64,000 nt of DNA from an uncultured Verrucomicrobia subdivision 3 bacterium (GTDB taxonomy: Bacteria; Verrucomicrobiota; Verrucomicrobiia; Limisphaerales; UBA11358): the NCBI GenBank assembly GCA_903884535.1, contig CAISEZ010000018.1, positions 9,482-73,481 of the forward strand, given 5' to 3'. The notes under the pieces were generated by a model. The model made no database searches, had not been told where the DNA came from, and was given only the letters and a program-made list of their open reading frames with translations. The position numbers were made by a program, and so were the translations under genes. Shown here in pieces: positions 2-43,327 of the stretch; the stretch's first letter is position 1; each line of letters starts with the position of its first letter.

Positions 2-607
2 TCGGTTTATGGCTGTCTTTCCTATGGCATCTTTTTGCCCGCAGCTTCTTCCTTCGGCTCACCGGGATATTCCACCCTCGTGGAAAGTTGCACCATCAAG
101 ACGGCAGGAGCAATTGGCATCCAGGCGGATACCGTCACCCACTGCACGGCCGTGGATTGTGGTAACACTGGTATTTCCGGCTCGTCGATTTCGGACAGTC
201 GCGGGGAAGCGGCCGGTATTGGCAGTGTCGGTCTTTCGGCCGTCAATGCTGAAAATTGTTACGGTGCCTGTTCGTCCACGAATCTGGGCTACGGCATATT
301 GACCATTCTGGCCAACAATTGTTCCGGTTATGCTGCCGGCGCAAGCAGCTACGCCATATTGGCGAACTCCACCGCCATTAATTGCTACGGCTACTGCACC
401 GGCACCAACGGCAATGGGATTTACGCCACCACGGCCAGCAATTGCCGGGGCTTTAGCACCAGCGGCAACGCGCTGAATATCATCGGCAGTGCCGTCGGTT
501 GTTATGGCCAGAGCACTTTTGGCACCGGCGTCAAAGCCACCGTGGCCAATGCGTGCGTGGTCGGCGGCGGCACCACCAACATCACCTACAAATACAACAT
601 GCCGTAG
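2..607 (+). CDS. NC(Y)G-repeat secreted beta-helix-like protein, paralog P0 (5' end outside window)
   Basis: The frame is open to the window start. It encodes G/S/T/A/N-rich 18-19 aa repeats, each with xNC(Y/S/R)G. The C-terminus TNITYKYNMP is the same type as paralog 5952..7049. Confidence 0.7.
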   Translation, partial: SVYGCLSYGIFLPAASSFGSPGYSTLVESCTIKTAGAIGIQADTVTHCTAVDCGNTGISGSSISDSRGEAAGIGSVGLSAVNAENCYGACSSTNLGYGILTILANNCSGYAAGASSYAILANSTAINCYGYCTGTNGNGIYATTASNCRGFSTSGNALNIIGSAVGCYGQSTFGTGVKATVANACVVGGGTTNITYKYNMP

Positions 608-1900: not shown

Positions 1901-2686
1901 ATGAAAAACAAAACCCTCATCACGGCTGTCTCTACATTCTTCCTTCTACATTCGGCCTTTGCCTTTGAGGGCCGCATTCAAGTCACGCTCACGCGCGGAG
2001 GCCAGCCGGCCAACCTGCTTTACACGGCGGGCACCAATTATTTGCGGGTGGAAAATACCGTCACCAACTGGCCGAACCCGGTGGATTTGCTGGATCGCAG
2101 TTCCGGCGCACTGACTCTACTTTTCCCCAACAACCGCAGCTTCGTGCATTTGCCGCCTGCCGCTCTGACACCCGCACCTGGCGCAATGCCCATGCCGATG
2201 CCACCACCCGCCTTGCCTGCGGGCACCTCGGTCACGCCGCCACCCGGCGCACCGGCGATGCCACAGATGCCCCAAATGCCGCAGATGCCCGCCGCCGGTG
2301 GAATGCCGATGATGCCAATGGAGCAACCGGAACTTAAAGCCACCGGTGAAACCACCAATCTTCTCGGTTATGCTTGCACCGGTTACGAAATCAAGCAGCG
2401 CGGCGAGACAATGGAAGTCTGGGCTACGGATCAGTTGTTACCTTTCCAGCCCTATGTGCAAAACCAGCCGCATCGTTTCGGCCCGCAGATGATCGAGGAA
2501 CAATGGGCGGAACTGGTCAAGGCCAAGAAGCTGTTCCCGTTGCTGGCCACCTTGAAGTTCGACAATGGAATGGAACATTTCCGGTTCGAGGTCAAGGCCG
2601 TCACGCCGCAGACATTCACGGAAAAAGATGCCGCACTGTTTCAACCGCCGCCGGAGTATCTGGAAATCCAGCCGCTGCCGTTTTAA
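1901..2686 (+). CDS. secreted DUF4412-like protein with a Pro/Met-rich linker
   Basis: 261 aa with a signal peptide (FFLLHSAFA-FEG). The pattern FEGRI..T.....N...Y..GTNYLRVE and ELKATGETTNLLGYACTGYEI...EVWAT resembles DUF4412 from memory. There is a PMPMPPP..MPQMPQMPQMP low-complexity segment. Confidence 0.6.
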   Translation: MKNKTLITAVSTFFLLHSAFAFEGRIQVTLTRGGQPANLLYTAGTNYLRVENTVTNWPNPVDLLDRSSGALTLLFPNNRSFVHLPPAALTPAPGAMPMPMPPPALPAGTSVTPPPGAPAMPQMPQMPQMPAAGGMPMMPMEQPELKATGETTNLLGYACTGYEIKQRGETMEVWATDQLLPFQPYVQNQPHRFGPQMIEEQWAELVKAKKLFPLLATLKFDNGMEHFRFEVKAVTPQTFTEKDAALFQPPPEYLEIQPLPF

Positions 2687-2726
2687 CCAATGAAGAATTA
2701 CGAATCAGAATGAAGAAAATAAAACC

Positions 2727-3769
2727 ATGAAAACCAACCACGCCAAACTCATACTCGTCACCGCTGTCACAATTTCCGCTTTCCGCTTTCCGCCTTTTCG
2801 CAAGGCGTCCTCACGCCGCCGGGCGTGCCGGCACCGATGATGAAGTCGCTCTCGCAAATCGAGCCGCGCACACCGATCAACACGTTGCCGGGCGACGGAG
2901 GCTATGATCTTTACTACATCTCGCAATCCGGCTCGTATTATCTGACCACCAACATTGTGGTCGCCAGCGGCACCAATGGGATTGGAGTCGGGGCCAGCGA
3001 CGTGGTGATAGACCTCAACGGGTTCACCCTCTCCGGCACGGCGAGCAGAATTGCGATCCGGTCCACCGCGAATCTGGGCCGGGTGCGGATCTGCAACGGC
3101 CAGCTCACCGGCTGGTCGGGCGGGCTGGATTTTTACGTCAATGGAACCGGGACTAACCTCACCCTCGAAAACGTGCAAATGACGCTGACCAACGGCGGCG
3201 CAGGATTGTTCGCCGGGGTCGGATGCGGCGACGGATTGAGTCTCGCACATTGCACCATTTCCGGCGCAAGCGGGCCGTCCAGCTATGCCGTTTTGGCGGG
3301 CGACCGCTGCACATTCGAAGCCTGCACCCTGTTCGGCTGTAATTATGGAATTGACGCCGGTTCCACTATCACGGTCAAGGACTGCACCATCAAAAACTGT
3401 TCCGGTGGGGAAGGTATTTTTGTGAGCAACACTAGCATCCTCCTCAACAACCTTCTGGACGGATGCAAAATGGGCATGACCTTCCACAACGCCTGCATGG
3501 TTAGTCAAAACACCTGCCAGAATGCCACCGGCAACGGATTTAATATTAGCGGCAACTACAACCGCGTGGAGGATAACGTGTCTATTGGAAATGCCTTTTT
3601 CGGTTTCATTTCCCAAGGGGTGACCACGAACAATCTGGTGATTCGGAACCTGGCACGCGGAAACAGTTCGGGGAATTATGCCCTGAACAGCACCGATGCC
3701 GTCGGCCCCATTATTACCACATCCGGCACCATCACCAATTTGAATCCTTGGGCGAATTTTTCCTATTAA
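2727..3769 (+). pseudogene. paralog P2 (beta-helix C-terminal variant), frameshifted inside the signal-peptide heptamer tract
   Basis: ATG 2727 opens MKTNHAKLILVTAVTISAFRFP, homologous to the P5 leader, but stops at 2838..2840. The mature part (SQGVLTPPGVPAPMMKSLSQIEPRTPI.., to 3769) is in the +2 frame. The offset equals one missing 7-nt unit. Confidence 0.65.
2773..2793 (+). repeat. (TTTCCGC)x3 heptanucleotide tandem repeat
   Basis: Read directly. Three perfect units are followed by CTTTTCG CAAGGC. Confidence 0.9.
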
Positions 3770-3785
3770 CCCAACCCGCAACAGC

Positions 3786-4921
3786 ATGAAAACTAAAACT
3801 CTATTCTACTCCGTCATCGTTTCTGCCTTCTGCCTTCTGCCTTCTACCTTCGGGCAAGGAGTCTTGACGCCGCCGGGCGCGCCGGCGGCGGGGATGAAAT
3901 CACTCGCGCAGATTGAGCCGCGCACGCCGATCTCCGCCGCGCCGTTCACCATCTCGGCGGGCGGCTCGTATTATCTGACGACCAATCTCACCGTCAGTGC
4001 CGGCGATGCCATCACCATTGCCGCCGACAACGTGACGCTGGATTTGAACGGCTTCACCATCCGTTCCACCGCCGCCAGCGCGACGGGCCCGGCATTTTGC
4101 TCAATGGCGGTTTGAGGAACCTCACCCTCGCCAACGGCTTCATCCAAGGTGGCGTGACGAACAACGGCAGCGGCGTTTACAGCGGCGGCGGCTTTGCCAA
4201 CGGCATTTATTTTTCCGGCAATGCGCCGTTGAATGTGCTGGCGTCCCGCCTCTCGATTTCCGGCTGCTCGGTTTACGGCATCTATCTCCTTAATGGCAAT
4301 TCGACCGTGGTGGAAGCCTGCGCGGTGCGGACGGTGGGCGGTTATGGCATCGTTGCTTCCACCATCAAAAGTTGCGCGGCGATGGATTGCGGGAACACTG
4401 CCATCTATGGCGATGAGGTTTCGGATAGTCGCGGGCAATGTTCCGGCAGCAGCTCCGGCCTTTACGCCATCACCGCGCAGAACTGTAACGGCTACAGCGG
4501 CAGCGGCTCCGGCCTTGTCGCCACCACCGCGCAGAACTGTTACGGCCAAAGCACCAGCGGCGACGGCTTGGACACCACCACTGCGCAGAACTGTTATGGC
4601 CAAAGCACCAGCAGCTACGGCCTCTCCATCGGTGGCAACGCGCTGAACTGTTACGGCGTCAGCACCAGCGGCTACGGCCTTTATGCCATCGCCGCACAGA
4701 ACTGTTCCGGCTACAGCAGCGGCAATGGCGATGGCATTTACACCACCACCGCGCAGAACTGTTACGGTTACAGCGGCGGAACTGGCATCGGCCTGTTTGC
4801 TTCCAAGACCGCCAGTGGCTGCTATGGCTACTGTCTTTCCGGCACGGGGCTGTCGGCGTTCATCGCTAATTCCTGCTCCGGCACTTCCTTGAACGTGACG
4901 CATAATCTCAACTCCTACTGA
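3786..4921 (+). pseudogene. paralog P3, split by a 1-nt frameshift near 4092-4096
   Basis: ORFs 3786..4115 and 4097..4921 together reconstitute a full paralog (..STAASATGPA / (I)LLNGGLRNLTLANGFIQGGVTNN..). Sister P5 has GCC ATT TTA where P3 reads GCATTTTG. Confidence 0.7.
3821..3848 (+). repeat. (TTCTGCC)x3 + TTCTACC heptanucleotide tandem repeat
   Basis: Read directly. It encodes FCLLPSA.. of the P3 signal peptide. Confidence 0.9.
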
Positions 4922-4952
4922 TGAATTTATGATTCACCGAATCCAACCACCT

Positions 4953-5894
4953 ATGAAAACCAAAACCTTCCTCACCGCGTTTGTTTCATCCTTCATCCTT
5001 CAGCAATCCGCCTTCGGGCAAGGGGCTTTGACGCCGCCCGGCGCGCCCGTGGCGACAATGAAATCGCTCGACCAAATTTATGCGAAACTGGACGCGCGCA
5101 TTCCCATCACCAACAGTGCCAGCTTGGTGACGATTTCCCAGCCCGGCTCGTATTATTTGACGACCAATGTCACCGTCAGTTCCGGCAATGCCATCACCAT
5201 TGCCGCCGGCAACGTGACGCTGGACTTGAACGGCTTCACCATTGCTTCTACCGCCGCCAGCGCGGCGGGCTATGCCATCTTGATGGGCAGCGTGACGAAT
5301 GTTTCCATTTACAATGGGAACATCAGCAGCGGCGTGACGAACAGCGCCGCCGGCGTGTTTGGCGGCGGCGGCTTCGGCTACGGCATTTATAATTCTGGAT
5401 TTTCCTACAATGTGCGGGTGAAGTCGGTGTCCGTCGCGGGCGCGTTAACTTATGGAATTTATCTCGGCCAGGGCAACTCCACGGTGGTGGAAGCCTGCTC
5501 GGTCAATGTGGCGTCCACTTATGGAATTTATGCCGACAGTGTGTCCGATTCGACGGCGGTGAATTGTGGAAACTGTGGCGTCTTTGCCCACGCGGCGCAC
5601 AATTGCACAGGCTACGGCGTGGGCAGCGGCACCGGGCTGTATGCTAACACCGCCAACAACTGTTTCGGCTACAGTGCCGGGAGCGGTGCCGGGCTGAATG
5701 CGAGCATCGCCAACAACTGTTACGGCTACAGTTCCGGGAACGGCTACGGGCTGTATGCCGGCTCAGTGGCGACGGGCTGTTACGGTTACAGTCTCAACGG
5801 CACGGGGCTGTCTGCCTTCCTTGCCAGTGTCTGCCACGGAGAATCCATCTCCGGCACGGCCCTCATCACGTCGCACAACGTGAACTCGTTCTGA
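4953..5894 (+). CDS. NC(Y)G-repeat secreted protein, paralog P4
   Basis: The ATG at 4953 (MKTKTFLTAF..) is chosen by homology to the other leaders; the ORF opens at 4929. It has the conserved LTPPGAPVATMKSLDQI module, 5 NC-type units and the C-terminus HNVNSF. Confidence 0.8.
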   Translation: MKTKTFLTAFVSSFILQQSAFGQGALTPPGAPVATMKSLDQIYAKLDARIPITNSASLVTISQPGSYYLTTNVTVSSGNAITIAAGNVTLDLNGFTIASTAASAAGYAILMGSVTNVSIYNGNISSGVTNSAAGVFGGGGFGYGIYNSGFSYNVRVKSVSVAGALTYGIYLGQGNSTVVEACSVNVASTYGIYADSVSDSTAVNCGNCGVFAHAAHNCTGYGVGSGTGLYANTANNCFGYSAGSGAGLNASIANNCYGYSSGNGYGLYAGSVATGCYGYSLNGTGLSAFLASVCHGESISGTALITSHNVNSF

Positions 5895-5951
5895 ACCATT
5901 TAGGATTTACGATTGCCGATTTACGATTTGAAAATTAAACCAAGGAAAATT

Positions 5952-7049
5952 ATGAAAACCAACCTTACAAAGCTCACCCTTGTCGTCGCCATGGCGCTTT
6001 CCGCTTTCCGCTTTCCGCTTTCCGCTTTTGCCCAAGGCACGCTCACGCCGCCGGGCGCGCCGGCGGCGGGGATGAAATCGCTGGCGCAAATCGAGCCGCG
6101 CACGCCGATCTCCGCCGCGCCCTTCACCATTACTGTGCCGGGGTCGTATTACCTGACCACGAATCTCACCACCACGGTGAGCAATGCCATAGTGATACTC
6201 ACGAATGGGGTGACGCTGGATTTGAGCGGATTCACGCTGACCTCGACCGTGGCCAACGCGGCCAATGGCGGCACGGCCATTTTATTGGGCAGCGGTCTGA
6301 GTGACATCACGATAGGCAACGGCCACATCCGCAGCGGCGTGACGAACAACGGCGGCGGCGTTTACAGCGGCGGCGGGTTTGCCTACGGAATTAGTTGGAG
6401 TGGCAATCCGCCGCAGAATGTGCTGGCATCCCGCGTCTCGGTGGTTGGCTGCCTGAATCATGGCATTGCTTTGAACAATGGCAATTCAACGGGGGTGGAA
6501 GCCTGCATGGTGCGGACGGTGGGGAGCATTGGCATCATGGCTTCCACCATCAAAAGCAGCTCGGCGGCGGATTGCGGAGGCTCGGCCATCTATGGCGATG
6601 AGGATTCCGATTGTATCGGGCAAAGTTCCGGCGGCGGCTACGGCATTTACGCCTTCACCAGCGCGCAGAGCTGTTACGGCACCAGCGGCAGCAGCTACGG
6701 CCTTTATGCCATGACGGCAGAGAACTGTTACGGCATCAGTAGCACCGGCACCGGTATCCAAGCCCGCTCCGCGGCGAATTGTTACGGCTCCACCGTCAGC
6801 GACTACGGCATTTCCACCTACATCGCGCTAAACTGTTGTGGCAACAGCACCGGCACCGGTCTATACGCCCTTCTATCAGCCAGCGGCTGTTATGGTCAAA
6901 GTGCTCTAGGCACGGGGTTGTATGCCTTAAATGCCAGCTTTTGCACGGGCAACGTCTCTGGCGGCACGGCCATCCGAGCCACCATGGCTACCGGCTGTAG
7001 CGCCTTTATCGGCACCAACATCATCACCTACAAATACAACATGCCGTGA
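5952..7049 (+). CDS. NC(Y)G-repeat secreted protein, paralog P5
   Basis: The ATG at 5952 (MKTNLTKLTLVVAMALSAFRFPLSAFA-QG) is preceded by AAGGA. It has the conserved module, about 7 Cys-containing units and the C-terminus IITYKYNMP. Confidence 0.8.
   Translation: MKTNLTKLTLVVAMALSAFRFPLSAFAQGTLTPPGAPAAGMKSLAQIEPRTPISAAPFTITVPGSYYLTTNLTTTVSNAIVILTNGVTLDLSGFTLTSTVANAANGGTAILLGSGLSDITIGNGHIRSGVTNNGGGVYSGGGFAYGISWSGNPPQNVLASRVSVVGCLNHGIALNNGNSTGVEACMVRTVGSIGIMASTIKSSSAADCGGSAIYGDEDSDCIGQSSGGGYGIYAFTSAQSCYGTSGSSYGLYAMTAENCYGISSTGTGIQARSAANCYGSTVSDYGISTYIALNCCGNSTGTGLYALLSASGCYGQSALGTGLYALNASFCTGNVSGGTAIRATMATGCSAFIGTNIITYKYNMP
5998..6025 (+). repeat. (TTTCCGC)x4 heptanucleotide tandem repeat
   Basis: Read directly. 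It encodes LSAFRFPLSA of the P5 signal peptide. Confidence 0.9.
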
Positions 7050-7081
7050 ATCAACAAATGCAGAATGAAGAAACCAAAACT

Positions 7082-8170
7082 ATGAAAACTCAACTTAATC
7101 TCGCCGTCCTTGCGCTGCTGCTGGCAACCGGCAACCGGCAACTTTCAACCTTGCACGCGCAGGGCGTGCTCACGCCGCCCGGCGCGCCGGCTGCGGGGAT
7201 GAAAACGCTGGCGCAAATCGAACCACGCACACCTATCTCCGCCGCGCCGTTCACCATTTCGACGGCTGGCTCGTATTATTTGACGACCAACCTCACCGTA
7301 AGTGTGGGCAATGCCATCACCGTCAGCGCGAACAACGTGACGCTGGACTTGAATGGCTTCACCCTGGCCTCGACGGAAACGCCGGCGGGAAGCAGCATTG
7401 GCATTTCCTTGAACTCGGTGACGAACACCACCATCGCGCATGGCTGCATCAGCAGCGGCGTGACCAATAGCGGCGGTATTTATGGTGGCAGCGGCTTTGG
7501 TTCCGGCATTTATTATTTAGGCTTGGCGCCGGTCAACGTGCGCGTCTCGGGCGTTTCGGTTTCGGGCTGCCGAGTGAACGGTATGTTTCTCGGCACCAGT
7601 TCGGTGGTAGAATTCTGCACAGTCAACACCATGGGAAATTTTGGCATCGTTGCCGAAACTGTTTCGGACTCGCTGGCACAAAATTGCGGGAACACTGCGG
7701 TGTATGCCTACGGCAATGCCAATAACTGTTTTGGCTACGCTTCCGGCAGCGCCAACGGCGTGTATGCCAACGCCGCAAATAACTGCTATGGCACCAGTTC
7801 CGGCGGCAGCGGCTTGGCGGCCAGCATTGCCAACAACTGCTATGGCTACACGGCCAGCAATAATAACGGCTTGTCGGCCACCGTCGCCAACAATTGTTTT
7901 GGTCAAAGTGCCAATGGCAACGGCATTTCGGCCACGGCGGCTACCGGCTGTTATGGGCAATCGGATGCTGGCCTCTACAGTGGCGTGCTGGCCAGCACGG
8001 CCAATAACTGCGTTGGCTACAGCTACGGCGGCGGCTATGGACTCTATGCCTATTACATCGCCAATGGCTGTTATGGCTACAGTGCCAGCGGCACGGGTCT
8101 CAATGCGTTGATTGCCAGTGTCTGTCATGGCTCGACGCTCTCGACCAGTCATAGCGTCAATTCCTTTTGA
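7082..8170 (+). CDS. NC(Y)G-repeat secreted protein, paralog P6
   Basis: The ATG at 7082 opens MKTQLNLAVLALLLATGNRQLSTLHA-QG. It has the conserved module, 8 NC-type units and the C-terminus HSVNSF. Confidence 0.8.
   Translation: MKTQLNLAVLALLLATGNRQLSTLHAQGVLTPPGAPAAGMKTLAQIEPRTPISAAPFTISTAGSYYLTTNLTVSVGNAITVSANNVTLDLNGFTLASTETPAGSSIGISLNSVTNTTIAHGCISSGVTNSGGIYGGSGFGSGIYYLGLAPVNVRVSGVSVSGCRVNGMFLGTSSVVEFCTVNTMGNFGIVAETVSDSLAQNCGNTAVYAYGNANNCFGYASGSANGVYANAANNCYGTSSGGSGLAASIANNCYGYTASNNNGLSATVANNCFGQSANGNGISATAATGCYGQSDAGLYSGVLASTANNCVGYSYGGGYGLYAYYIANGCYGYSASGTGLNALIASVCHGSTLSTSHSVNSF
7123..7150 (+). repeat. GGCAACC GGCAACC GGCAACT TTCAACC heptad-periodic tract
   Basis: Read directly, inside the P6 signal-peptide coding region. 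Confidence 0.75.
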
Positions 8171-8238
8171 TGAAATCTTGATAAATTCGCCGACTAAAAA
8201 CGCCATTCTCCAATTTAGAAACCCCAGCAAACAAAACT

Positions 8239-9666
8239 ATGAAAACAAAAAACTTCATCCTCGGCTTCGTTTCTGCCTTCTGCCTTCTGCCTTCTGCATT
8301 CACTCACGCCGCCACGACCATCAGCGCCGTGAACCGTTATGCCTATGCCGCGAATCTCGGCTGGATGGACTGGCGCGGCGACACCAACAACGGTGCCGTC
8401 ATTAATGCGACCTATTGTTCCGGCTCAATCTATGCCGCCAACGTCGGCTGGATCAGTTTAGGCGCCGGCACGCCCACCAATGGCGTGCAATACCAGAACC
8501 TTTCCGCCAATGACTACGGCGTGAACGTGGATGCCTTCGGCAACCTGCGCGGCTTTGCCTACGGCGCAAATATCGGCTGGATCAATTTTGAGACCAACGG
8601 CGCGGCCGCCGTGGATTTCGGCTCCGGCAACCTGACTGGTTATGCCTACGGCGTGAACGTCGGCTGGATCAGCTTGAGCAACGCCGTGGCCTATGTGCAA
8701 ACCGCGCCGCTGGCTCCGCCCAACGACCTCTGCGCCGGGGCCATTGCGCTCACCAACGGTGCCAGCTATGCCATGAGCACGGTGACCGCCACCACCAATG
8801 GCGATCCGACGTTGCCATGCCTCACCCTCTTTGGCAAAGGCGTCTGGTTCACTTACACGCCGTTGCTCACCGGCAATGTCACCATTAGCACTTGCGGCAG
8901 CAGTTTTGACACCGCGATGGCGGTTTATACCGGCACTTGCGGCGCCATGACCGCAGTTGCTTGCGATGATGATAATGGTCCTTCCTGTTCCGGCGTCAAC
9001 GCCAGCGTGACCTTCTCCGGCACGGCGGGTGTAACTTACTCCATTCTGGCGGGCGGCTATAATTCGGCCAACGGCAACTTGAGCATCGTCGCCACTTCGC
9101 CTTCCAACGACCAGTGCGCCGGTGCCTTGGCCCTCGCGGACGGCGTGCCGTTCACGATGGGCACGACCAACGCCACTTCCACCGGCGATCCATCGCCAGC
9201 CTGCGTGGGCAGTTTTGGCAAGGGCGTCTGGTTCACCTACACGGCCCCGGCCAGCGGCGACGTGTATATCAGCACCTGTGGCAGCAGTTATGACACCGCG
9301 ATGGGAGTTTACACCGGCGGTTGCGGCGCGTTGAGCCAAATTGCCTGCAATGATGACAGCGGACCGAATTGCGCGAGTTTGCAGGCCAGCGTGCATCTGG
9401 TCGCCACCGGCGGGACTACCTACTACATCCTTGCGGGAGGTTATGGCAGCAGCAGCGGCCTTCTAACCGTCGAGGCCTATCTTGTGCCGGCGCTCAATGT
9501 CATTGGCTCGGCCGGCACCCTGACAGTCACCTGGCCCGGCAATGGCACCTTGCAGTCCGCCACGAATCTGCTCCCGGTAATCAACTGGACCGATTTAACG
9601 AATGGCGGCGGCCTCTGGTCCGAACCCATGACCAACCCGGCGAAATTCTTCCGCATTAAAAAATAG
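8239..9666 (+). CDS. secreted protein with four GW(I/M) repeats, two Cys-rich ~135-aa modules and an FFR C-terminal module
   Basis: 475 aa with signal peptide SAFCLLPSAFTHA. Repeats are ANLGWMDW, ANVGWISL, ANIGWINF and VNVGWISL. Two duplicated modules read ND.CAGA..L....T.AT..GDP...C...FGKGVWFTYT..G.V.ISTCGSS.DTAM.VYTG.CGA....AC.DD.GP.C. Confidence 0.8.
   Translation: MKTKNFILGFVSAFCLLPSAFTHAATTISAVNRYAYAANLGWMDWRGDTNNGAVINATYCSGSIYAANVGWISLGAGTPTNGVQYQNLSANDYGVNVDAFGNLRGFAYGANIGWINFETNGAAAVDFGSGNLTGYAYGVNVGWISLSNAVAYVQTAPLAPPNDLCAGAIALTNGASYAMSTVTATTNGDPTLPCLTLFGKGVWFTYTPLLTGNVTISTCGSSFDTAMAVYTGTCGAMTAVACDDDNGPSCSGVNASVTFSGTAGVTYSILAGGYNSANGNLSIVATSPSNDQCAGALALADGVPFTMGTTNATSTGDPSPACVGSFGKGVWFTYTAPASGDVYISTCGSSYDTAMGVYTGGCGALSQIACNDDSGPNCASLQASVHLVATGGTTYYILAGGYGSSSGLLTVEAYLVPALNVIGSAGTLTVTWPGNGTLQSATNLLPVINWTDLTNGGGLWSEPMTNPAKFFRIKK
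8271..8298 (+). repeat. (TTCTGCC)x3 + TTCTGCA heptanucleotide tandem repeat
   Basis: Read directly. It is the same unit and the same left flank (CGTTTCTGCC) as 3821..3848. Confidence 0.9.
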
Positions 9667-9776: not shown

Positions 9777-10922
9777 ATGCTGCGGCACATGATTCATGAT
9801 GTTCAAGCCATCGCGGCGGAAGTGATTCGGAAAACCGGCAAGGACAAGCCGGCGGACGCGGCGTTGCGCGAGGTGCTCAAGCAGATCAAAGATCTCGCGC
9901 CCTTCGACGCAACGGAAATCGCCAAGACCGTTTTTCTGTATTACCGTTGGCACGTTTGGTTGCGCGAAGAACGCGGCGTGGAAAACAAGATGCGTTTTGC
10001 CATCCGCTTGAACCAACGCTTTCAGGCGAACAACGCCAGTGTGCCCATCGCCGAGCTACGCGCCAATGCCGTGCCCGTGTGGACAGCGTCGGAAATGGAC
10101 GTCACCGATGAATGGTTGCTCACCTTGCAACGCGAACCGAAATTGTGGCTGCGCGCCAAACGCGGCACGGCGGACTCGCTGGCACGGACGCTGTTCGCGG
10201 CGGATGTGAGTCCGCTGCTGCCGGAGGCAATTTTGTATCGTGGCGAGGAAGATTTGTTTAAGACGCCGGAATTTCACGCGGGCGAATTTGAAATCCAAGA
10301 CATCGCATCGCAACTGGTGGGCATGCTCTGCGCGCCGCAGCCGGGCGAGACGTGGTGGGACACGTGCGCCGGCGAAGGCGGTAAGACGCTCCACCTGTCC
10401 GACCTGATGCAAAACAAAGGTATGCTCTGGGCCAGCGACCGCGCGGAATGGCGGCTGACCAAGCTCAAGCGCCGGGCCGGGCGGGCGAAAGTTTTCAATT
10501 ATCGGTCGGCGCACTGGGACGGTGGCGCGAAGTTACCGACAAAAACAAAGTTTGACGGCGTGCTCGTGGATGCGCCGTGCAGTGGCATCGGCACGTGGCA
10601 GCGCAATCCGCAGGCGCGCTGGACCACCGAGCCGAACGATGTGCGCGAGCTTTCTGCAATTCAAAAAAAACTTTTGGCCAATGTTGCGCCGAGTTTGAAG
10701 CCAGGTGGTAAATTGATTTATTCCGTGTGCACGCTGACGCGCGCTGAATCCACGGAAGTCGTGGACGATTTCAATTCAAAGTTCGCGGCAGAATTTGAGC
10801 CGATGGAACTGGCGGCGACCGCTTCTGGCGGTCAGCAGACTGACGCCACAAAAACGATCTGGCCGCAAGATTTGGGCGGGAACGGAATGTTTATCGCGGG
10901 TTGGCGGCGGAAGAAAATTTAG
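9777..10922 (+). CDS. RsmB/NOP2/Sun-family RNA (cytosine-C5) methyltransferase
   Basis: 381 aa. Motifs WWDTCAGEGGKT, DAPCSGIGTWQRNPQARW and YSVCTL are typical of the family. Confidence 0.8.
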   Translation: MLRHMIHDVQAIAAEVIRKTGKDKPADAALREVLKQIKDLAPFDATEIAKTVFLYYRWHVWLREERGVENKMRFAIRLNQRFQANNASVPIAELRANAVPVWTASEMDVTDEWLLTLQREPKLWLRAKRGTADSLARTLFAADVSPLLPEAILYRGEEDLFKTPEFHAGEFEIQDIASQLVGMLCAPQPGETWWDTCAGEGGKTLHLSDLMQNKGMLWASDRAEWRLTKLKRRAGRAKVFNYRSAHWDGGAKLPTKTKFDGVLVDAPCSGIGTWQRNPQARWTTEPNDVRELSAIQKKLLANVAPSLKPGGKLIYSVCTLTRAESTEVVDDFNSKFAAEFEPMELAATASGGQQTDATKTIWPQDLGGNGMFIAGWRRKKI

Positions 10923-22960: not shown

Positions 22961-23190
22961 TTTATTATTTTGCTTGTCCGCTCCGAGGTTTGTTTTGAAA
23001 CCGAAAGTGGAGCGACTGGACTTTCGGTTTTTTGTAAAATATTTTTGCTCGGTGCATCGTCGAGCAACATGCGCAGGGAAGGCGTCAAGGTGTCCTCGTA
23101 TTGCCCGCTGCGGACCGACCAGATAAACGCGCCTAGGAAAATCAGGCCGACGACAAGGCTCGCAAGAATGAGGACGATAAGGACGCTCAT
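22957..23190 (-). CDS. ccoS: cbb3 oxidase maturation protein CcoS/FixS
   Basis: It begins MSVLIVLILASLVVGLIFLGAFIWSVRSGQYED. It has ATGA overlaps with the ccoI stop and the OMP start. Confidence 0.85.
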   Translation of the reverse strand: MSVLIVLILASLVVGLIFLGAFIWSVRSGQYEDTLTPSLRMLLDDAPSKNILQKTESPVAPLSVSKQTSERTSKIIK

Positions 23191-25763
23191 GCCGCCTCCT
23201 TCGTGACAAGTTGGGAGTTAAAAGGTGAAATTTCAGAACAACTCCGATTAGGACCCTCAATGCTCAAATCCCCAACCATCAACTTTCTTCCCAGCCAGGC
23301 AGTCGTTCCGCAGGCGAACACCACAATGGTCGCCGAACTTAGCGGCATTAAGATGGCGCAGACGATCGGCGACAAAATACCCGCGGCGGCGATGCTCACG
23401 CCGACCAAATTATAAAGCGCCGAGATGACAAAGCCGGCGCGCACCACGCGTGCCGCGCTGCGGGAAAAATTCAAAACTTGGGTCAGCCGGGGCAGTTCCG
23501 CCGCGTCGAGAATCACGTCGCTGGCCGGGGAAAAAATCCCGACCTGCTCGACGACCGCCACGCCGACATCTGCCTGTTTCAACGCGCCCGCGTCATTGAG
23601 GCCGTCGCCGACCATCATCACCCTGCGGCCACACGCTTGGAGTTCGCGCACGAAATTTAATTTATCCGCCGGGCTTTGGTTGAATTTCAGAATCGCGCGA
23701 CCGCCAAATAATTTAGCAAATCGCTCCGCCTCGCGCTCGTTGTCACCGCTCAACAGCGCCAGTTCAAATCGGTCGCCGAGCTCCGTCAGAAGCTGCGCGA
23801 CTTCGGGCCGCAGCGAGTTTTCCAGCCGGAATTCGCCGCGCCAAACGCCATCAATGGCCACGCCCACCGCACTGCCGGATTTAGGCTGGCCTGAAATAAT
23901 GTCGGGGCAAGCCGGCACGCCGCAATATTCCAGCCAGGCCTGCGAGCCGAGCAAAATCTTGTGTCCCGCAACTTCGCCTTCCACGCCGCAGCCCGGCGTT
24001 TCCTTGAAACCGGCAACCGGCAAAACCTTAAATGAAAGTGCTTTCGAAATGCGGACGGAATTCGGATGCGTCGAATGCCGCGCCAGCGATCCAATCCATG
24101 AATTTTCCTCCGCGCTCAAGTCGCCACGTTTTGCTTCTGCATTCTGCATTCTTCCTTCTGCCCCCAAAAACTCCACGCCGCGCGCGTCGGCGCAGGTAAT
24201 GGTTCCGGTTTTGTCCAAGACAATTGCGTCCACCGCTGCCATGCGCTCAATGACCAGCGCATTTTTCAAAAAGATTTTCATCCGCGCCAAGATGCGTTGC
24301 GCGGTGCCGTGCGTCAGGGGTGCCGCCAGCGCGAGCGCGCACGGGCAGGCTACAATCAAAACCGACGTGAAGGCTTTCAGCGCTTTTGCCAAGTCGCTAA
24401 AAAACCAAAACACCGCCGCCGCCACCGCAATCCCGACGACCATTTTCGTGAAACGGCGGCTATAACGGTTGGTGAGCGAGTCGAGGTCGTCGTCGGTGTT
24501 TTTGCGGAACGCCTCGTTGTTCCAAAGCGTTGCCAGGTAGCTTTGCGCGACCGGCTTGGTGGTTTCCACTTCGATGGCGCCACCCACCTGACGACCGCCG
24601 GCGAACAGATGCTTGCCGATTTCGCAGGCGACTGGCTCCGCTTCGCCGGTGACAAAACTGTAATCTAGAAAAGCTTCGCCACTGACAAGTTTTGCGTCCG
24701 CCGGCAACAGTTCACCGTTCCGTAAAATCAAATGGTCGCCCGTTTGCAGTTGTGAAAGCGCGACGCTGGTTTCGCCGGCGAAACTTTTCCGGACGACCGA
24801 TAACGGGAAAAAGCCTTTGTAATCGCGGTCAAACGTGAGCCGGTCGTAAGTTCGTTTTTGGAATAAACGGCCGCACAGCAGAAAAAATATCAAGCCGCAC
24901 AGCGAATCGCAAAAACCGGGGCCGCGCTGGGAAACCACTTCAAACGCGCTGGTCAGATAAATCGCCGTCAAACCGATCACAATGGGCACTTCCATCGTCA
25001 GCGCACGCTGGCGAAAGCTCAACCGCGCCGCGCGCCAGAAATCCGACGCGCTGAACGTCACCACCGGCAGTGCGAACGCGAGGCTCAGCCAGCCGGCGAT
25101 GGCTTTGAACCACGGGCCATTGAACGAATCGAGCCCGAAATAAAACGGCAGCGACATCAGCATGATGTTGCCAAATGCAAAGCCGGCGAGGCCGATTTGC
25201 AGCCAAGCTTTTTTCCGCCACGGCGACGGCTTGGCCTTTTCCGTTTCGCCAAAGGTCAGTTCTGGTTCGTAACCGATGGACGCCAGCAGCGCGACCAGTT
25301 CGCTGAATTTTATTTTGCTCGGCGCAAAGGTGATGGCGGCTTCGCGCCGGGAAAAATTCACCTGCGAATGGCCGACGCCGGGATGCAGCTTGAACAGATT
25401 TTCCAGCAACCACACGCACGCGATGCAATGAATGGCCGGCAGATGTAGCGTGACCTTGGCCCGCGTGGAGTCCGCGTAATCGAACAATTTTTCCGACACC
25501 GCCGGGTCGTCGAGAAACGCCCATTTTGAGGCGGCAGCTGCGGCGCGAAAACGGGTGCCGGGAGCAGTGTTTAGTTCATAAAATTGTTCCAGCCCATTTT
25601 CGCGCAGCAAACTGAAAACGGTCTGGCAGCCGAAACAGCAGAAACTTCTTTCATCCAGCGTGAAGGCTCGGTCCGGACATGGCTCGCCACAATGAAAGCA
25701 GCCACCCGCCGCGCGCGGGGCGAGGTTGGGCGAGGTCGGCGTGGCTATGAATTGCTCCGGCAT
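23187..25763 (-). CDS. ccoI: copper-translocating P1B-type ATPase CcoI/FixI
   Basis: 858 aa. It has CPC (VACPCALALA), DKTGT and GDGLND, plus N-terminal Cys pairs. Confidence 0.9.
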   Translation of the reverse strand: MPEQFIATPTSPNLAPRAAGGCFHCGEPCPDRAFTLDERSFCCFGCQTVFSLLRENGLEQFYELNTAPGTRFRAAAAASKWAFLDDPAVSEKLFDYADSTRAKVTLHLPAIHCIACVWLLENLFKLHPGVGHSQVNFSRREAAITFAPSKIKFSELVALLASIGYEPELTFGETEKAKPSPWRKKAWLQIGLAGFAFGNIMLMSLPFYFGLDSFNGPWFKAIAGWLSLAFALPVVTFSASDFWRAARLSFRQRALTMEVPIVIGLTAIYLTSAFEVVSQRGPGFCDSLCGLIFFLLCGRLFQKRTYDRLTFDRDYKGFFPLSVVRKSFAGETSVALSQLQTGDHLILRNGELLPADAKLVSGEAFLDYSFVTGEAEPVACEIGKHLFAGGRQVGGAIEVETTKPVAQSYLATLWNNEAFRKNTDDDLDSLTNRYSRRFTKMVVGIAVAAAVFWFFSDLAKALKAFTSVLIVACPCALALAAPLTHGTAQRILARMKIFLKNALVIERMAAVDAIVLDKTGTITCADARGVEFLGAEGRMQNAEAKRGDLSAEENSWIGSLARHSTHPNSVRISKALSFKVLPVAGFKETPGCGVEGEVAGHKILLGSQAWLEYCGVPACPDIISGQPKSGSAVGVAIDGVWRGEFRLENSLRPEVAQLLTELGDRFELALLSGDNEREAERFAKLFGGRAILKFNQSPADKLNFVRELQACGRRVMMVGDGLNDAGALKQADVGVAVVEQVGIFSPASDVILDAAELPRLTQVLNFSRSAARVVRAGFVISALYNLVGVSIAAAGILSPIVCAILMPLSSATIVVFACGTTAWLGRKLMVGDLSIEGPNRSCSEISPFNSQLVTKEAA
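24135..24162 (+). repeat. TTCTGCA TTCTGCA TTCTTCC TTCTGCC heptamer tract inside ccoI
   Basis: Read directly on the + strand. On the coding (-) strand it gives ..GAEGRMQNAEAK... Confidence 0.85.
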
Positions 25764-28886: not shown

Positions 28887-30311
28887 TTAATGCGCCAGCC
28901 ATGACACGCCAAGCTTCAAAAGCTTTTGCACAGCGGCATCGGACTTCGCCTCGGCATAAATTCGCAGGACCGGCTCGGTGCCGGAACCGCGCAGCATCAA
29001 CCACGCCGAATCGGCGGCGATGAATTTCACCCCGTCGCGCGCATCCACTTTTACCAGCGGCGACTGCAGAAGTTTTGTTGGTGGATTCCGTTTAAGCGAT
29101 TCCATGAGCGCAGTGCGCTTTTCCACCGGATACGGCGCGTCAAACCGCGCGTAGCGATGCGGACCAAAATACTTCTCCAGGTTTGCCCAGAGCTGATTCA
29201 CTGAGATTTTTTCCATCGCCAGCATTTCGAGCAGGAACAATCCGGCCGCCAAACCGTCGCGCTCGGGAATGTGATTCGCAAAGCCAACCGAACCGCTTTC
29301 TTCCGCGCCGAATAGCGCGCCGGTTTTCATCAATTCCGGCGCGATAAAGCGGAAGCCGATGCCGACTTCCGTGAGCGGCAGGTTCCACGCTGCGCACATT
29401 TTGTCCACCATCGCCGTGGTGTTGAACGTCTTCGTCACCGTGCCGCGACCGCCGCGATTGCGCACGAGATGATGCAGCAGCAACGCGATGACCTGCTGGT
29501 TGGTCAGCGGTTCACCGCGCCCATCCATCGCGCCAATGCGGTCGGCATCACCGTCGGTGACGAGGCAGATGTCGTGCGGATTGTTCCGCAACTGCGCGCC
29601 GCCGAGGGCGTAATTTTTCGGCAACGGCTCCGGACTAATCCCCCCGAATAAAATATCGTGCGCGCCATTGAGCGTGGTGACGGTGCAATTCGTTTTGGCC
29701 AGCAGCGTTTCAAACACGCCCGCGCCGACGCCGAACAGTGCGTCATGCGCCACGCGCAATTTGGCTTTGGCAATGAGCTTGAAATCCACGAGTTGCTTGA
29801 TGGCGGCGAAGTGCGCCGGGCGGACATCTTGAACGGCAATTTCTAATTTTGACTTATTATTTTTGAAGGGCGGCGGATTTCGGTCCAAAAAACTTTCCAC
29901 GGCCGCGCACACCTCGGCGCTGCTGCTGCCGCCAAAATGCGACTTGAGTTTGAAGCCGTTGAAGATCGGTGGATTGTGACTGGCGGTGATCATTACGCCG
30001 CCGACGGCTTGGAGATTTTTCACCGCGAAGGAAACACTTGGCGTGGGCGTGGGCTCCGGCGTGAGGATGACTTGAAAATCATTCCCGACAAACACCTCGG
30101 CGGTGATTTGCGCGAAGCGGTCGGACAAAAACCGGCGGTCGTAGCCGACGACCACTTTTGGCTCGCGCCTGAAAATTTCTGATTTTGAATTTCCGATTTC
30201 CGATTTCCAGAAATCCGCCGTGGCCTGCGCGACGCGGGCGACGTTGGCAAACGTAAAATCTTCCGCGATGACCGCGCGCCAGCCGTCCGTGCCGAATTTG
30301 ATGGGTGCCAC
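28887..30311 (-). CDS. phosphoglucomutase/phosphomannomutase family protein
   Basis: 474 aa. It has the active-site motif TASHNPP and the Mg site DGDADR. Confidence 0.85.
   Translation of the reverse strand: MAPIKFGTDGWRAVIAEDFTFANVARVAQATADFWKSEIGNSKSEIFRREPKVVVGYDRRFLSDRFAQITAEVFVGNDFQVILTPEPTPTPSVSFAVKNLQAVGGVMITASHNPPIFNGFKLKSHFGGSSSAEVCAAVESFLDRNPPPFKNNKSKLEIAVQDVRPAHFAAIKQLVDFKLIAKAKLRVAHDALFGVGAGVFETLLAKTNCTVTTLNGAHDILFGGISPEPLPKNYALGGAQLRNNPHDICLVTDGDADRIGAMDGRGEPLTNQQVIALLLHHLVRNRGGRGTVTKTFNTTAMVDKMCAAWNLPLTEVGIGFRFIAPELMKTGALFGAEESGSVGFANHIPERDGLAAGLFLLEMLAMEKISVNQLWANLEKYFGPHRYARFDAPYPVEKRTALMESLKRNPPTKLLQSPLVKVDARDGVKFIAADSAWLMLRGSGTEPVLRIYAEAKSDAAVQKLLKLGVSWLAH
30189..30209 (+). 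repeat. ATTTCCG ATTTCCG ATTTCCA heptamer tract inside the PGM-family gene
   Basis: Read directly. On the coding (-) strand it gives WKSEIGNSKSEIF. Confidence 0.85.
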
Positions 30312-42713: not shown

Positions 42714-43253
42714 ATGAGCAAACCCGAAGCTGAAACGCCCCAGCCTGAAGCCGCCGCCGCGCCCACGCCCGAGCAGATCGCGGAATTGCAGGCGCGCGCC
42801 GCCAAGGCCGATGAAAACTGGGAGCGCCTGCTCCGCACCACCGCGGACTTCGACAATTTCAAGAAGCGCGCCGCACGGGAAAAAATTGAGGCCGGCCATT
42901 ACGCCAGCGCCTCCCTGCTCCAGAAATTGCTGCCCATCCTGGACAATTTTGAGATGGCGCTCGCCGCCGCGCAGAGCGCCAAAGGCGACAAGCTCGCGTC
43001 ACTCTCGACCGGCGTGACGATGATCCAGCAGCAGTTGAAAAACGCGCTTGCCGAAACCGGTCTCGAAGAAATTGAAACCGCCGGCCAACTGTTTGATCCC
43101 CACCTGCACGAGGCCGTTTCTCAGATGGAAACCAAGGAAGTTCCCGAAGGCCACGTCGCCCAGCAGCTCCGCAAAGGTTACAAGCTCAAAGAGCGTTTGC
43201 TCCGGCCCGCCACGGTCGTCGTCGCCAAACTGCCGGCGGAGAATTCAAAATGA
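42714..43253 (+). CDS. grpE: nucleotide exchange factor GrpE
   Basis: 179 aa. It has DNFKKRAAREK and a C-terminal ..GYKLKERLLRPATVVV. Confidence 0.95.
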   Translation: MSKPEAETPQPEAAAAPTPEQIAELQARAAKADENWERLLRTTADFDNFKKRAAREKIEAGHYASASLLQKLLPILDNFEMALAAAQSAKGDKLASLSTGVTMIQQQLKNALAETGLEEIETAGQLFDPHLHEAVSQMETKEVPEGHVAQQLRKGYKLKERLLRPATVVVAKLPAENSK

Positions 43254-43305
43254 AAAATGCAAAATTAAAAACCGGCGGCGGCGCTTTCCGCGATTTTGCA
43301 TTTTT
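43253..43305. promoter_or_regulatory. 13-bp perfect inverted repeat between grpE and dnaJ
   Basis: AAAAATGCAAAAT (43253..43265) and ATTTTGCATTTTT (43293..43305) are separated by a 27-nt GC-rich spacer. Confidence 0.55.
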
Positions 43306-43321
43306 AATTTTTAATTTTTAA
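43301..43321 (+). repeat. (TTTTTAA)x3 heptamer repeat immediately upstream of dnaJ
   Basis: Read directly. It ends 6 nt before ATG 43328. Confidence 0.85.
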
Positions 43322-43327
43322 TTTTTC

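Follow-up and report, generated by a model that had tools for sequence, protein, structure and literature searches.

One-unit length variants of heptanucleotide tracts in the signal-peptide coding sequences of secreted beta-helix genes from uncultured Verrucomicrobiota

A 64,000-nucleotide (nt) stretch of DNA from an uncultured freshwater Verrucomicrobia subdivision 3 bacterium (contig CAISEZ010000018.1; the whole stretch is hereafter called the window, and array coordinates are window positions) carries between positions 1 and 9700 a row of same-strand genes, named P0 to P7 after a partial first member, for beta-helix family proteins and their array partners, whose signal-peptide coding sequences contain tandem repeats of 7 nt. 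One-unit length polymorphism of these tracts, with its ON/OFF consequence for the reading frame, was found at three loci in two species between near-identical natural strains. We therefore consider it likely that the tracts mediate slipped-strand, frame-shifting on/off variation of the kind described for Neisseria opa and Helicobacter pylori oipA, here with a single ON length and 3-5 copies of a 7-nt unit. An earlier reading of the window made from its letters alone (the sequence-only reading) had proposed a frame-shifting switch, and the proposal is supported, as tract lengths are neither strictly conserved nor always in frame: P2 is OFF in the window and has four units in four other samples, P3 has one unit fewer and is OFF in five contigs, and a gene of the second species has either four or three units.

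Heptanucleotide tracts in the leaders of the array genes

Tandem Repeats Finder and an exact scan recovered all tracts that the sequence-only reading had listed, at the same positions. In the window, nine tracts of 18 nt or longer repeat perfectly with period 7, versus 0-2 for periods 4, 5, 6 and 8-12, and there are nine runs of at least 11 self-matches at a lag of 7 nt, against a mean of 0.012-0.022 and a maximum of 1 in 500 triplet or base shuffles. A chance origin of these tracts is thus excluded. Six of the nine perfect tracts begin 32-46 nt past the start codons of P2 to P7, so that in each of these six genes a repeat unit not divisible by three lies inside the 5' coding region. The claim that every leader of the array is periodic was slightly overstated: it holds for P2 to P7, while the tract of P1 is imperfect (period 14/7, 86% matches) and that of the first array gene (650-1855) is a decayed remnant.

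Three heptamers are read once in each frame, as had been proposed, giving peptides such as SAFCLLPS, SAFRFPLSAF and ATGNRQLST. The tracts do not make up the whole hydrophobic core (h-region) of the signal peptide, as the sequence-only reading had it; they encode its C-terminal part together with the c-region before the A-x-A/QG cleavage zone. The array leaders end in an A-x-A type site followed by a conserved QG.LTPPGAP..MKSL.QIEPRTPI motif. About 10 further signal-peptide-like genes in the window show lag-7 runs of at most 6, in agreement with the earlier remark that other secreted proteins lack the periodicity. The tract and flank shared by P3 and P7 are identical over 29 nt (TCGTTTCTGCCTTCTGCCTTCTGCCTTCT, at 3817 and 8267), and P7 is an unrelated protein. 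The suggestion that the tract is a portable unit finds partial support, in that the same tract types occur on unrelated P7-like, DUF4412-like and QQYSIDWYKVSGGG families and in that heptamer-type signal peptides differ between mature proteins that are nearly identical.

The leaders of the individual genes differ in how perfect the repeat is. The signal peptide of P0 is MKNQLATLLMLATLNCQLLLVRA, followed by QG. In L015, an ortholog of P1 carries (TTCTGCC)x4.4 as a perfect tract that is in frame with a GTG start. The longest tract of the array is that of P5, whose leader reads MKTNLTKLTLVVAMALSAFRFPLSAFAQGTLTPPG. The perfect part of the P6 tract covers 7123-7142 (20 nt), and the perfect TTCTGCC run in the P7 tract covers 8271-8297 (27 nt), with one synonymous single-nucleotide polymorphism (SNP) in L002 and L006. 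The P4 tract showed no length variation among the contigs compared.

ON and OFF alleles in natural populations

P2 is OFF in the window. Its ATG (2727) opens a typical leader, MKTNHAKLILVTAVTISAFRFP, which meets a stop after 37 codons, and the conserved mature N-terminus, FSQGVLTPPGVPAPMMKSL, sits in a frame other than that of the ATG. The ATG lies 98 nt from the GTG of the mature frame, a distance that is out of frame, and one added TTTCCGC unit restores the frame. The ON leader predicted in this way, MKTNHAKLILVTAVTISAFRFPLSAFSQGVLTPPG, closely parallels the P5 leader, whose coding sequence contains 4.9 units of the TTTCCGC repeat. Indeed, P0242, a protein of 349 amino acids (aa) present on four contigs, begins exactly with the predicted leader.

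All length comparisons rest on consensus metagenome assemblies from ENA, NCBI and Logan; the tract variants came to light on anchoring at the upstream gene P1, via gene coordinates, and DNA was compared for three variant contigs (L205, L206 and L207). In this comparison P2 has three units (OFF) in the window, L001, L004, L203, L204 and L207 and four (ON) in L205 and L206, with 94 and 101 nt, respectively, between identical anchors. At the protein level, the 310-aa OFF forms (P0121, P0241 and P0243) are found on 18 contigs, versus four for the ON form. On contig 5u5rygOE, P2 was called with 349 aa from a start 41 nt past the P1 stop and the downstream genes are displaced by +7; samples for which gene coordinates alone were available show shifts of +7 or -7. 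The ON allele occurs on at least two backgrounds, one with the exact P1 of the window upstream (5u5rygOE) and one with a different upstream gene end (L205 and L206), which is compatible with recurrence or recombination. A P2 ortholog with 78% identity, P0122, is also ON.

Two independent assemblies, L005 (at its position 1) and contig sMIvvKyC, both start inside the P2 tract, at the equivalent of window position 2774. These assembly breaks could stem from the presence of both three- and four-unit alleles in the samples, or from the 21 nt that the tract has in common with that of P5.

For P3, the tract of L207 is (TTCTGCC)x2 + TTCTACC and out of frame, versus (TTCTGCC)x3 + TTCTACC in the window, and the distance from ATG to anchor is 79 nt in this OFF allele versus 86 nt in the ON allele. 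OFF forms of P3 are called from Met37 (P0246, 342 aa; P0248, 341 aa) and were found on five contigs, the 378-aa forms on 18; in two contigs with P3 called from Met37 the downstream gene coordinates are shifted by -7. P3 of the window falls into two parts of 109 aa and 274 aa because of a 1-nt deletion at 4088 that is separate from the tract. The deletion is absent from L004, L005 and L204-L207, and P3 is intact at 378 aa in L004, L005 and L204-L206. Since the broken form (P0245) occurs on five contigs, it is a real strain allele, unrelated to the tract.

In the second species the tract is (TTCAGCC)x4 and in frame in L215, and has three units and is out of frame in L208-L212 (five samples); the two alleles measure 86 nt (ON) and 79 nt (OFF) at 98.1% overall identity. 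Around every length variant the flanks are identical or nearly identical, and all ON lengths from ATG to anchor share one residue class modulo 3. Besides the tracts, the variant contigs differ from the window over 3-4.6 kb at four SNP sites and by the 1-nt indel at 4088, which amounts to 2-3 positions per contig, and two tracts of ~25 nt hold two of the seven differences.

Several homologs with shortened N-termini were discarded as OFF alleles. Among those starting at the internal Met of PAPTMKSLAQIEPR, P0129 and P0131 have an in-frame signal peptide upstream, which makes their short form a gene-calling artefact, and P0267, P0428 and P0089 begin at contig edges. Only P0121, P0246, P0248 and P0291 were retained as real OFF alleles after this sorting.

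Errors of assembly or sequencing at short repeats are scarcely credible as the source of the length differences. The sequences are metagenome assemblies, and L005 and sMIvvKyC do begin inside the P2 tract, yet every variant is present in 4-6 independent contigs from different samples and studies with different naming schemes (scaffold_, k141_). Moreover, the alleles differ by precisely one unit, with identical flanks on either side, and a 7-nt indel in a tract of at most 34 nt, shorter than a read, is not a typical assembler error.

Distribution of the tracts across Verrucomicrobiota

A census of 74 loci from Verrucomicrobiota metagenome-assembled genomes (MAGs) in GTDB together with the window (1.17 Mb) yielded 79 runs of at least 11 matches at lag 7, versus 0-16 at the other lags from 4 to 12. 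About 45 of the 80 census tracts start 32-112 nt after an ATG followed by K/R, which is the position of a signal peptide, and in the 35 nt before the cleavage zone the mean identity at lag 7 is 0.475, versus at most 0.34 at any other lag. Signal-peptide-like open reading frames (ORFs) bear a tract in 23 of 127 cases within the beta-helix family and in 15 of 484 cases outside it, and nearly all of these 15 are P7-like, DUF4412-like or QQYSIDWYKVSGGG proteins, which are the array partners, or family members missed by the motif search pattern. With the tracts mostly confined to the family and its array partners, they are a mark of the gene module rather than of signal peptides generally.

At least 15 distinct, internally perfect units occupy the same signal-peptide position. 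Correspondingly, the N-termini of homologs are rich in 7-residue strings that spell a heptamer in three frames: LNPQPST corresponds to (CTCAACC)x3, FSLQPSA to (TTCAGCC)x3, FILHPSS to (TTCATCC)x3, FIIHHSS to (TTCATCA)x3 and FCLLPSA to (TTCTGCC)x3. This variety bears on the idea that the product or the transcript of the tract is what matters, as a sorting or cleavage motif or as an element of the mRNA such as a site for a regulator or small RNA, with the period and the length variants incidental. Recurring peptides such as LSTLNPQLSTxFAQG, SAFSLQPSALLAQG and SAFCLLPSAFGQG do stand ahead of a strongly conserved mature N-terminus, and the coding strand always bears the pyrimidine-rich version of the tract. 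However, the 15 or more units yield quite different peptides at the same place, successive units encode serine first by AGC and then by TCA, which follows from the DNA repeat, and near-identical mature proteins have signal peptides of different types. The leaders have no Rfam match and fold no better than shuffled sequences (z = +1.7, -0.9, +2.1, -0.1), and out-of-frame alleles would be left unexplained. We regard such a function as very improbable.

Mature proteins at least 90% identical to each other can carry quite different heptamer-type signal peptides, for example LLLSTLNAQLSIAHAQG versus LLLSAFSLQPSALLAQG, and such swaps were seen in the clusters of P0082, P0185, P0192, P0181, P0053 and P0110. 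This suggests that the 5' end, comprising promoter and signal peptide, is exchanged between paralogs at the conserved AQGSLTPPGAP. In the N-terminus of P0049 and in L030 (~2560-2640), the leaders are broken in the tract zone by an insert encoding NPMPRRNQVKAGQRLAKGACL or NSMPRRNAVKAGQ, which looks like a small inserted element.

Two frameshifted family N-termini, in L016 and L064, were rejected as tract variants, the shift lying outside any heptamer tract. In L064, from a Chthoniobacterales MAG, the family gene is out of frame at a C-run (~9930-10006, read as PPPPPP), a shift that could be due either to a sequencing error or to switching at the homopolymer.

A probable frame-shifting switch with one ON length

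In the mechanism we favour, strand slippage in replication or repair would add or drop one heptamer unit, and this gain or loss would put the start codon and signal peptide out of (OFF) or into (ON) the mature frame, gene by gene. A one-unit change shifts the frame because 7 is not a multiple of three. The nearest change that keeps the frame is one of three units, or seven residues, and it would leave the signal peptide with its end either missing or duplicated. In practice, therefore, one ON length per gene, flanked by OFF lengths, is expected. Indeed, no in-frame allele differing by three units was present among 143 DNA N-termini, 240 protein N-termini and the stretches of at least five units listed in the metagenome scan described below (at least 120), and each gene seems to have one ON length. 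The presence of at least 15 perfect units in the same position is beyond what point mutation alone can produce and implies that tracts have repeatedly shrunk and grown, hence passing through OFF states over evolutionary time. Slippage as the mutational mechanism accords with these patterns, and the switching may be reversible and frequent enough for bet-hedging, as in a contingency locus.

Several observations weigh against this interpretation. Six contigs anchored on P7 (L001-L006) are 99.5-100% identical and show no tract length variation, and 137 of 143 family N-termini are in frame, with only the P2 of the window shifted at a heptamer tract. The variant alleles are linked to SNPs, at 2652 with P2-ON (L205 and L206) and at 3416 with P3-OFF (L207), and could therefore be stable strain alleles that each arose once. 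Moreover, the signal-peptide tracts are short (3-4.9 units), and with such low copy numbers slippage should be far rarer than in opa, so classical contingency loci probably switch at a considerably higher rate. Decay of redundant paralogs also contributes, as seen from the 1-nt deletion in P3 and from a form of P6 truncated outside the tract (P0255, 118 aa), each on five contigs.

In an alternative view the tracts are a neutral by-product: slippage-biased heptamers would arise easily in bacteria and persist where the end of a signal peptide tolerates almost any sequence, and the ON and OFF alleles would reflect ordinary pseudogenisation of redundant paralogs, serving no switch. A known excess of heptamers among bacterial repeats has been put down to polymerase slippage (PMC4692102), and heptamers of the window also lie in a P-type ATPase gene, in a phosphoglucomutase gene and upstream of dnaJ. 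In addition, copy numbers are low, most alleles are in frame and of constant length, and array genes are also disabled by frameshifts outside the tracts. However, the other signal-peptide genes without a tract, both the ~10 in the window and nearly all of the 484 non-family ORFs apart from array partners, argue against mere tolerance. If a gene is needed, synonymous changes should interrupt a repeat so prone to frameshifts, yet at least 15 perfect unit types are kept across orders; and the tracts encode residues that are poor in signal peptides (N, Q, P, H and R), which suggests that the DNA repeat comes first. Furthermore, the mature ORFs of the OFF genes are intact (314-342 codons), and two of four inactivating polymorphisms fall within ~2% of the coding sequence. 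On balance a purely neutral origin seems unlikely.

A frame-shifting switch could also extend further. We advance only tentatively that free-living Verrucomicrobiota possess a lineage-wide heptamer contingency system, in which every array gene and partner would have a switch with one ON length, the module of signal peptide plus tract would be swapped by recombination at the conserved mature N-terminus, and selection for switchability would preserve perfect repeats. If true, such a system would provide combinatorial variation of exported proteins, for example against phages or grazers.

Comparison with known repeat-driven switches

Nearly all detailed work on repeat-driven on/off switching concerns host-adapted pathogens. 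In the present case this switching logic appears, with an unusual 7-nt unit, in an abundant, uncultured environmental lineage and in a family of thousands of secreted beta-helix proteins. Because public metagenomes already contain both kinds of allele, ON and OFF, the use of contingency loci by free-living bacteria to vary their surface or secretome is testable with existing reads.

The nearest parallel is the opa family of Neisseria, in which CTCTT pentamer repeats lie in the sequence coding for the leader peptide (PMC3745409). In both systems the signal-peptide code includes a repeat with a unit length not divisible by three, whose three frames are read as hydrophobic or small residues, a one-unit change sets the mature protein in or out of frame, and the copies of an exported multi-copy family are switched separately. 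The differences are considerable: the unit is 7 nt rather than 5, the unit sequences number at least 15 against a single one in opa, and there are 3-5 copies rather than ~7-28, for which a rate much lower than the ~1e-3 per generation of opa is expected. Only one ON length per gene was seen here, the proteins are beta-helices with no homology to the beta-barrels of Opa (as judged from Pfam and the P5 model), and the organism is a free-living Verrucomicrobium rather than a host-restricted pathogen. In oipA of H. pylori, CT dinucleotide repeats lie in the signal-peptide code (PMC10564699). There, likewise, an exported protein is subject to a slipped-strand frame switch at the 5' end of its gene, within the signal-peptide code, and natural isolates include ON and OFF alleles, but oipA is a single gene with a dinucleotide and many ON patterns, whereas heptamers occur here in arrays of paralogs and partners.

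Variable 7-nt repeats control the large exported adhesins encoded by hmw1A and hmw2A in Haemophilus influenzae (PMC8262952, PMC12721329). Those repeats are located between promoter and start codon and grade transcription and mRNA processing, whereas the leader tracts of the array belong to the ORF itself and affect its reading frame. A closer analogue would be the intergenic (ATTTACG)n at 5898-5929, for which no variation was seen. Heptamers are over-represented among bacterial repeats (Mrazek 2007 as cited in PMC4692102), and the cyanobacterial and Xanthomonas repeats show two likenesses to the tracts, a 7-nt unit strongly over-represented relative to other unit lengths and lengths that vary between related strains. 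The cyanobacterial short tandemly repeated repetitive (STRR) sequences and the Xanthomonas GGGAATC type are intergenic, often long, often G-rich and often in inverted pairs, whereas those of the array are coding, pyrimidine-rich, shorter than five units and tied to signal peptides.

A literature search returned no paper pairing Verrucomicrobia with heptanucleotide repeats or Verrucomicrobiota with phase variation. The mechanism is of a known kind (opa/oipA-type), and what is new is the unit length, the design with one ON length, the free-living Verrucomicrobiota lineage and the scale, a large family with its partners. In practical terms, OFF copies are annotated by gene callers as N-terminally truncated, non-secreted proteins.

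The array proteins

The family is defined by the conserved motif that follows the cleavage zone, is arranged in arrays and has more than 1771 database relatives, of which the named ones are parallel beta-helix proteins of Verrucomicrobiae. The DnaJ encoded in the window assigns it to Verrucomicrobiae/Limisphaerales-like MAGs. Pfam matches of the array proteins are restricted to NosD/pectate-lyase-like, Beta_helix, DUF4412 and galactose-binding-like domains, and there is no NCBIfam match and no PDB sequence match. An AlphaFold model of P5 is a right-handed beta-helix (predicted local distance difference test, pLDDT, 86; predicted template modelling score, pTM, 0.80), and a Foldseek search with it gave fold-level likeness only, to fucoidan lyase, phage tailspikes and the AlgE4 epimerase (template modelling score, TM, 0.2-0.38). 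From this model one might guess at a secreted or surface role in binding or cleaving carbohydrates. All targets of the tracts carry signal-peptide-like N-termini with an A-x-A type site; the array proteins are accordingly expected to be exported, and either exposed at the surface or extracellular.

Array layout and other heptamer repeats

The array and the remaining heptamer repeats are listed in Table 1.

Table 1 Genes and heptamer repeats of the array, and heptamer repeats elsewhere in the window and in other loci
Feature	Position	Strand	Remarks
Partial beta-helix family gene	35-607	+	First of the row
P0, beta-helix family, secreted, 401 aa	650-1855	+	Heptamer tract decayed; lag-7 run 4
P1, secreted DUF4412 protein	1901-2686	+	Imperfect period-7/14 tract, 1931-1965
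P2, NosD/pectate-lyase-like beta-helix gene, OFF in the window	2727-3769	+	Mature ORF 2798-3769
P2 tract, (TTTCCGC)x3	2773-2793	+	Polymorphic
P3, beta-helix family gene	3786-4921	+	Tract at ON length; gene broken by 1-nt deletion
P3 tract, (TTCTGCC)x3 + TTCTACC	3821-3848	+	Polymorphic; perfect part 3821-3845, 25 nt
P4, beta-helix family gene	4953-5894	+	TTCATCC tract, 4985-5002, 18 nt, in frame
Intergenic repeat, (ATTTACG)x4.6	5898-5929	+	22 nt upstream of the P5 start codon
P5, beta-helix family gene, 365 aa	5952-7049	+	CGCTTTC x4.9, 5995-6028, 34 nt, in frame
P6, beta-helix family gene	7082-8170	+	GGCAACC x2.9 + GGCAACT TTCAACC, 7123-7150, in frame
P7, secreted, unrelated to the family; ANxGW repeats, galactose-binding-like domains	8239-9666	+	(TTCTGCC)x3.9, 8271-8298, in frame
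TTCTGCA/TTCTTCC/TTCTGCC tract	24135-24161		Inside heavy-metal P-type ATPase gene (E1-E2_ATPase, HMA), minus-strand ORF 23187-25763, in frame
(ATTTCCG)x2.9	30189-30208		Minus-strand ORF 28887-30311, phosphoglucomutase/phosphomannomutase N-terminal domain, ~100 nt past the start, in frame
AAAATGA repeat, weaker	43247-43271		Near dnaJ
(ATTTTTA)x3.9	43300-43326		grpE-dnaJ spacer; ends one base before the dnaJ ATG (43328)
GATTTAC-type repeats	L008 (6290, 7502, 11116, 12160), L023 8907, L058 3685, L073 12075, L078 12024		Upstream of family genes

A second class of heptamers (ATTTACG/GATTTAC, with the relatives AAATCGC, AAATCCG and GATTTCC) occurs in several genomes in short spacers upstream of array genes, where it is sometimes translated by gene callers as 'IYDLRFTI'. 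These spacer repeats may be a promoter or 5' untranslated region element or a second kind of switch; the ATTTACG repeat showed no length variation among L001, L004 and L005. The tract in the P-type ATPase gene is, on the mRNA, the reverse complement of the P3/P7 tract type.

Metagenomes were scanned for at least five units of the pattern YTCWNCC, which gave at least 120 stretches (L083-L202), and none of those listed was in a family signal-peptide context or before the family motif. Long arrays of 5-18 units (TTCATCC, TTCTGCC, CTCAACC and CCCTCAT) are common in environmental contigs, mostly intergenic and often beside their reverse complement. They were set aside as a class different from the leader tracts, and belong with the intergenic repeats of the cyanobacterial and Xanthomonas kind. 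Inverted pairs of the form (GGATGAA)n ... (TTCATCC)n were present in L165, L182 and L115 and would form long hairpins.

Beyond the array, and following a gene for an RsmB-like methyltransferase, the minus strand carries a gene with a Pab1-type restriction endonuclease domain (PF09522, 10919-11728). L004 differs from the window by ~40 SNPs within 9893-10202, a locally divergent patch.

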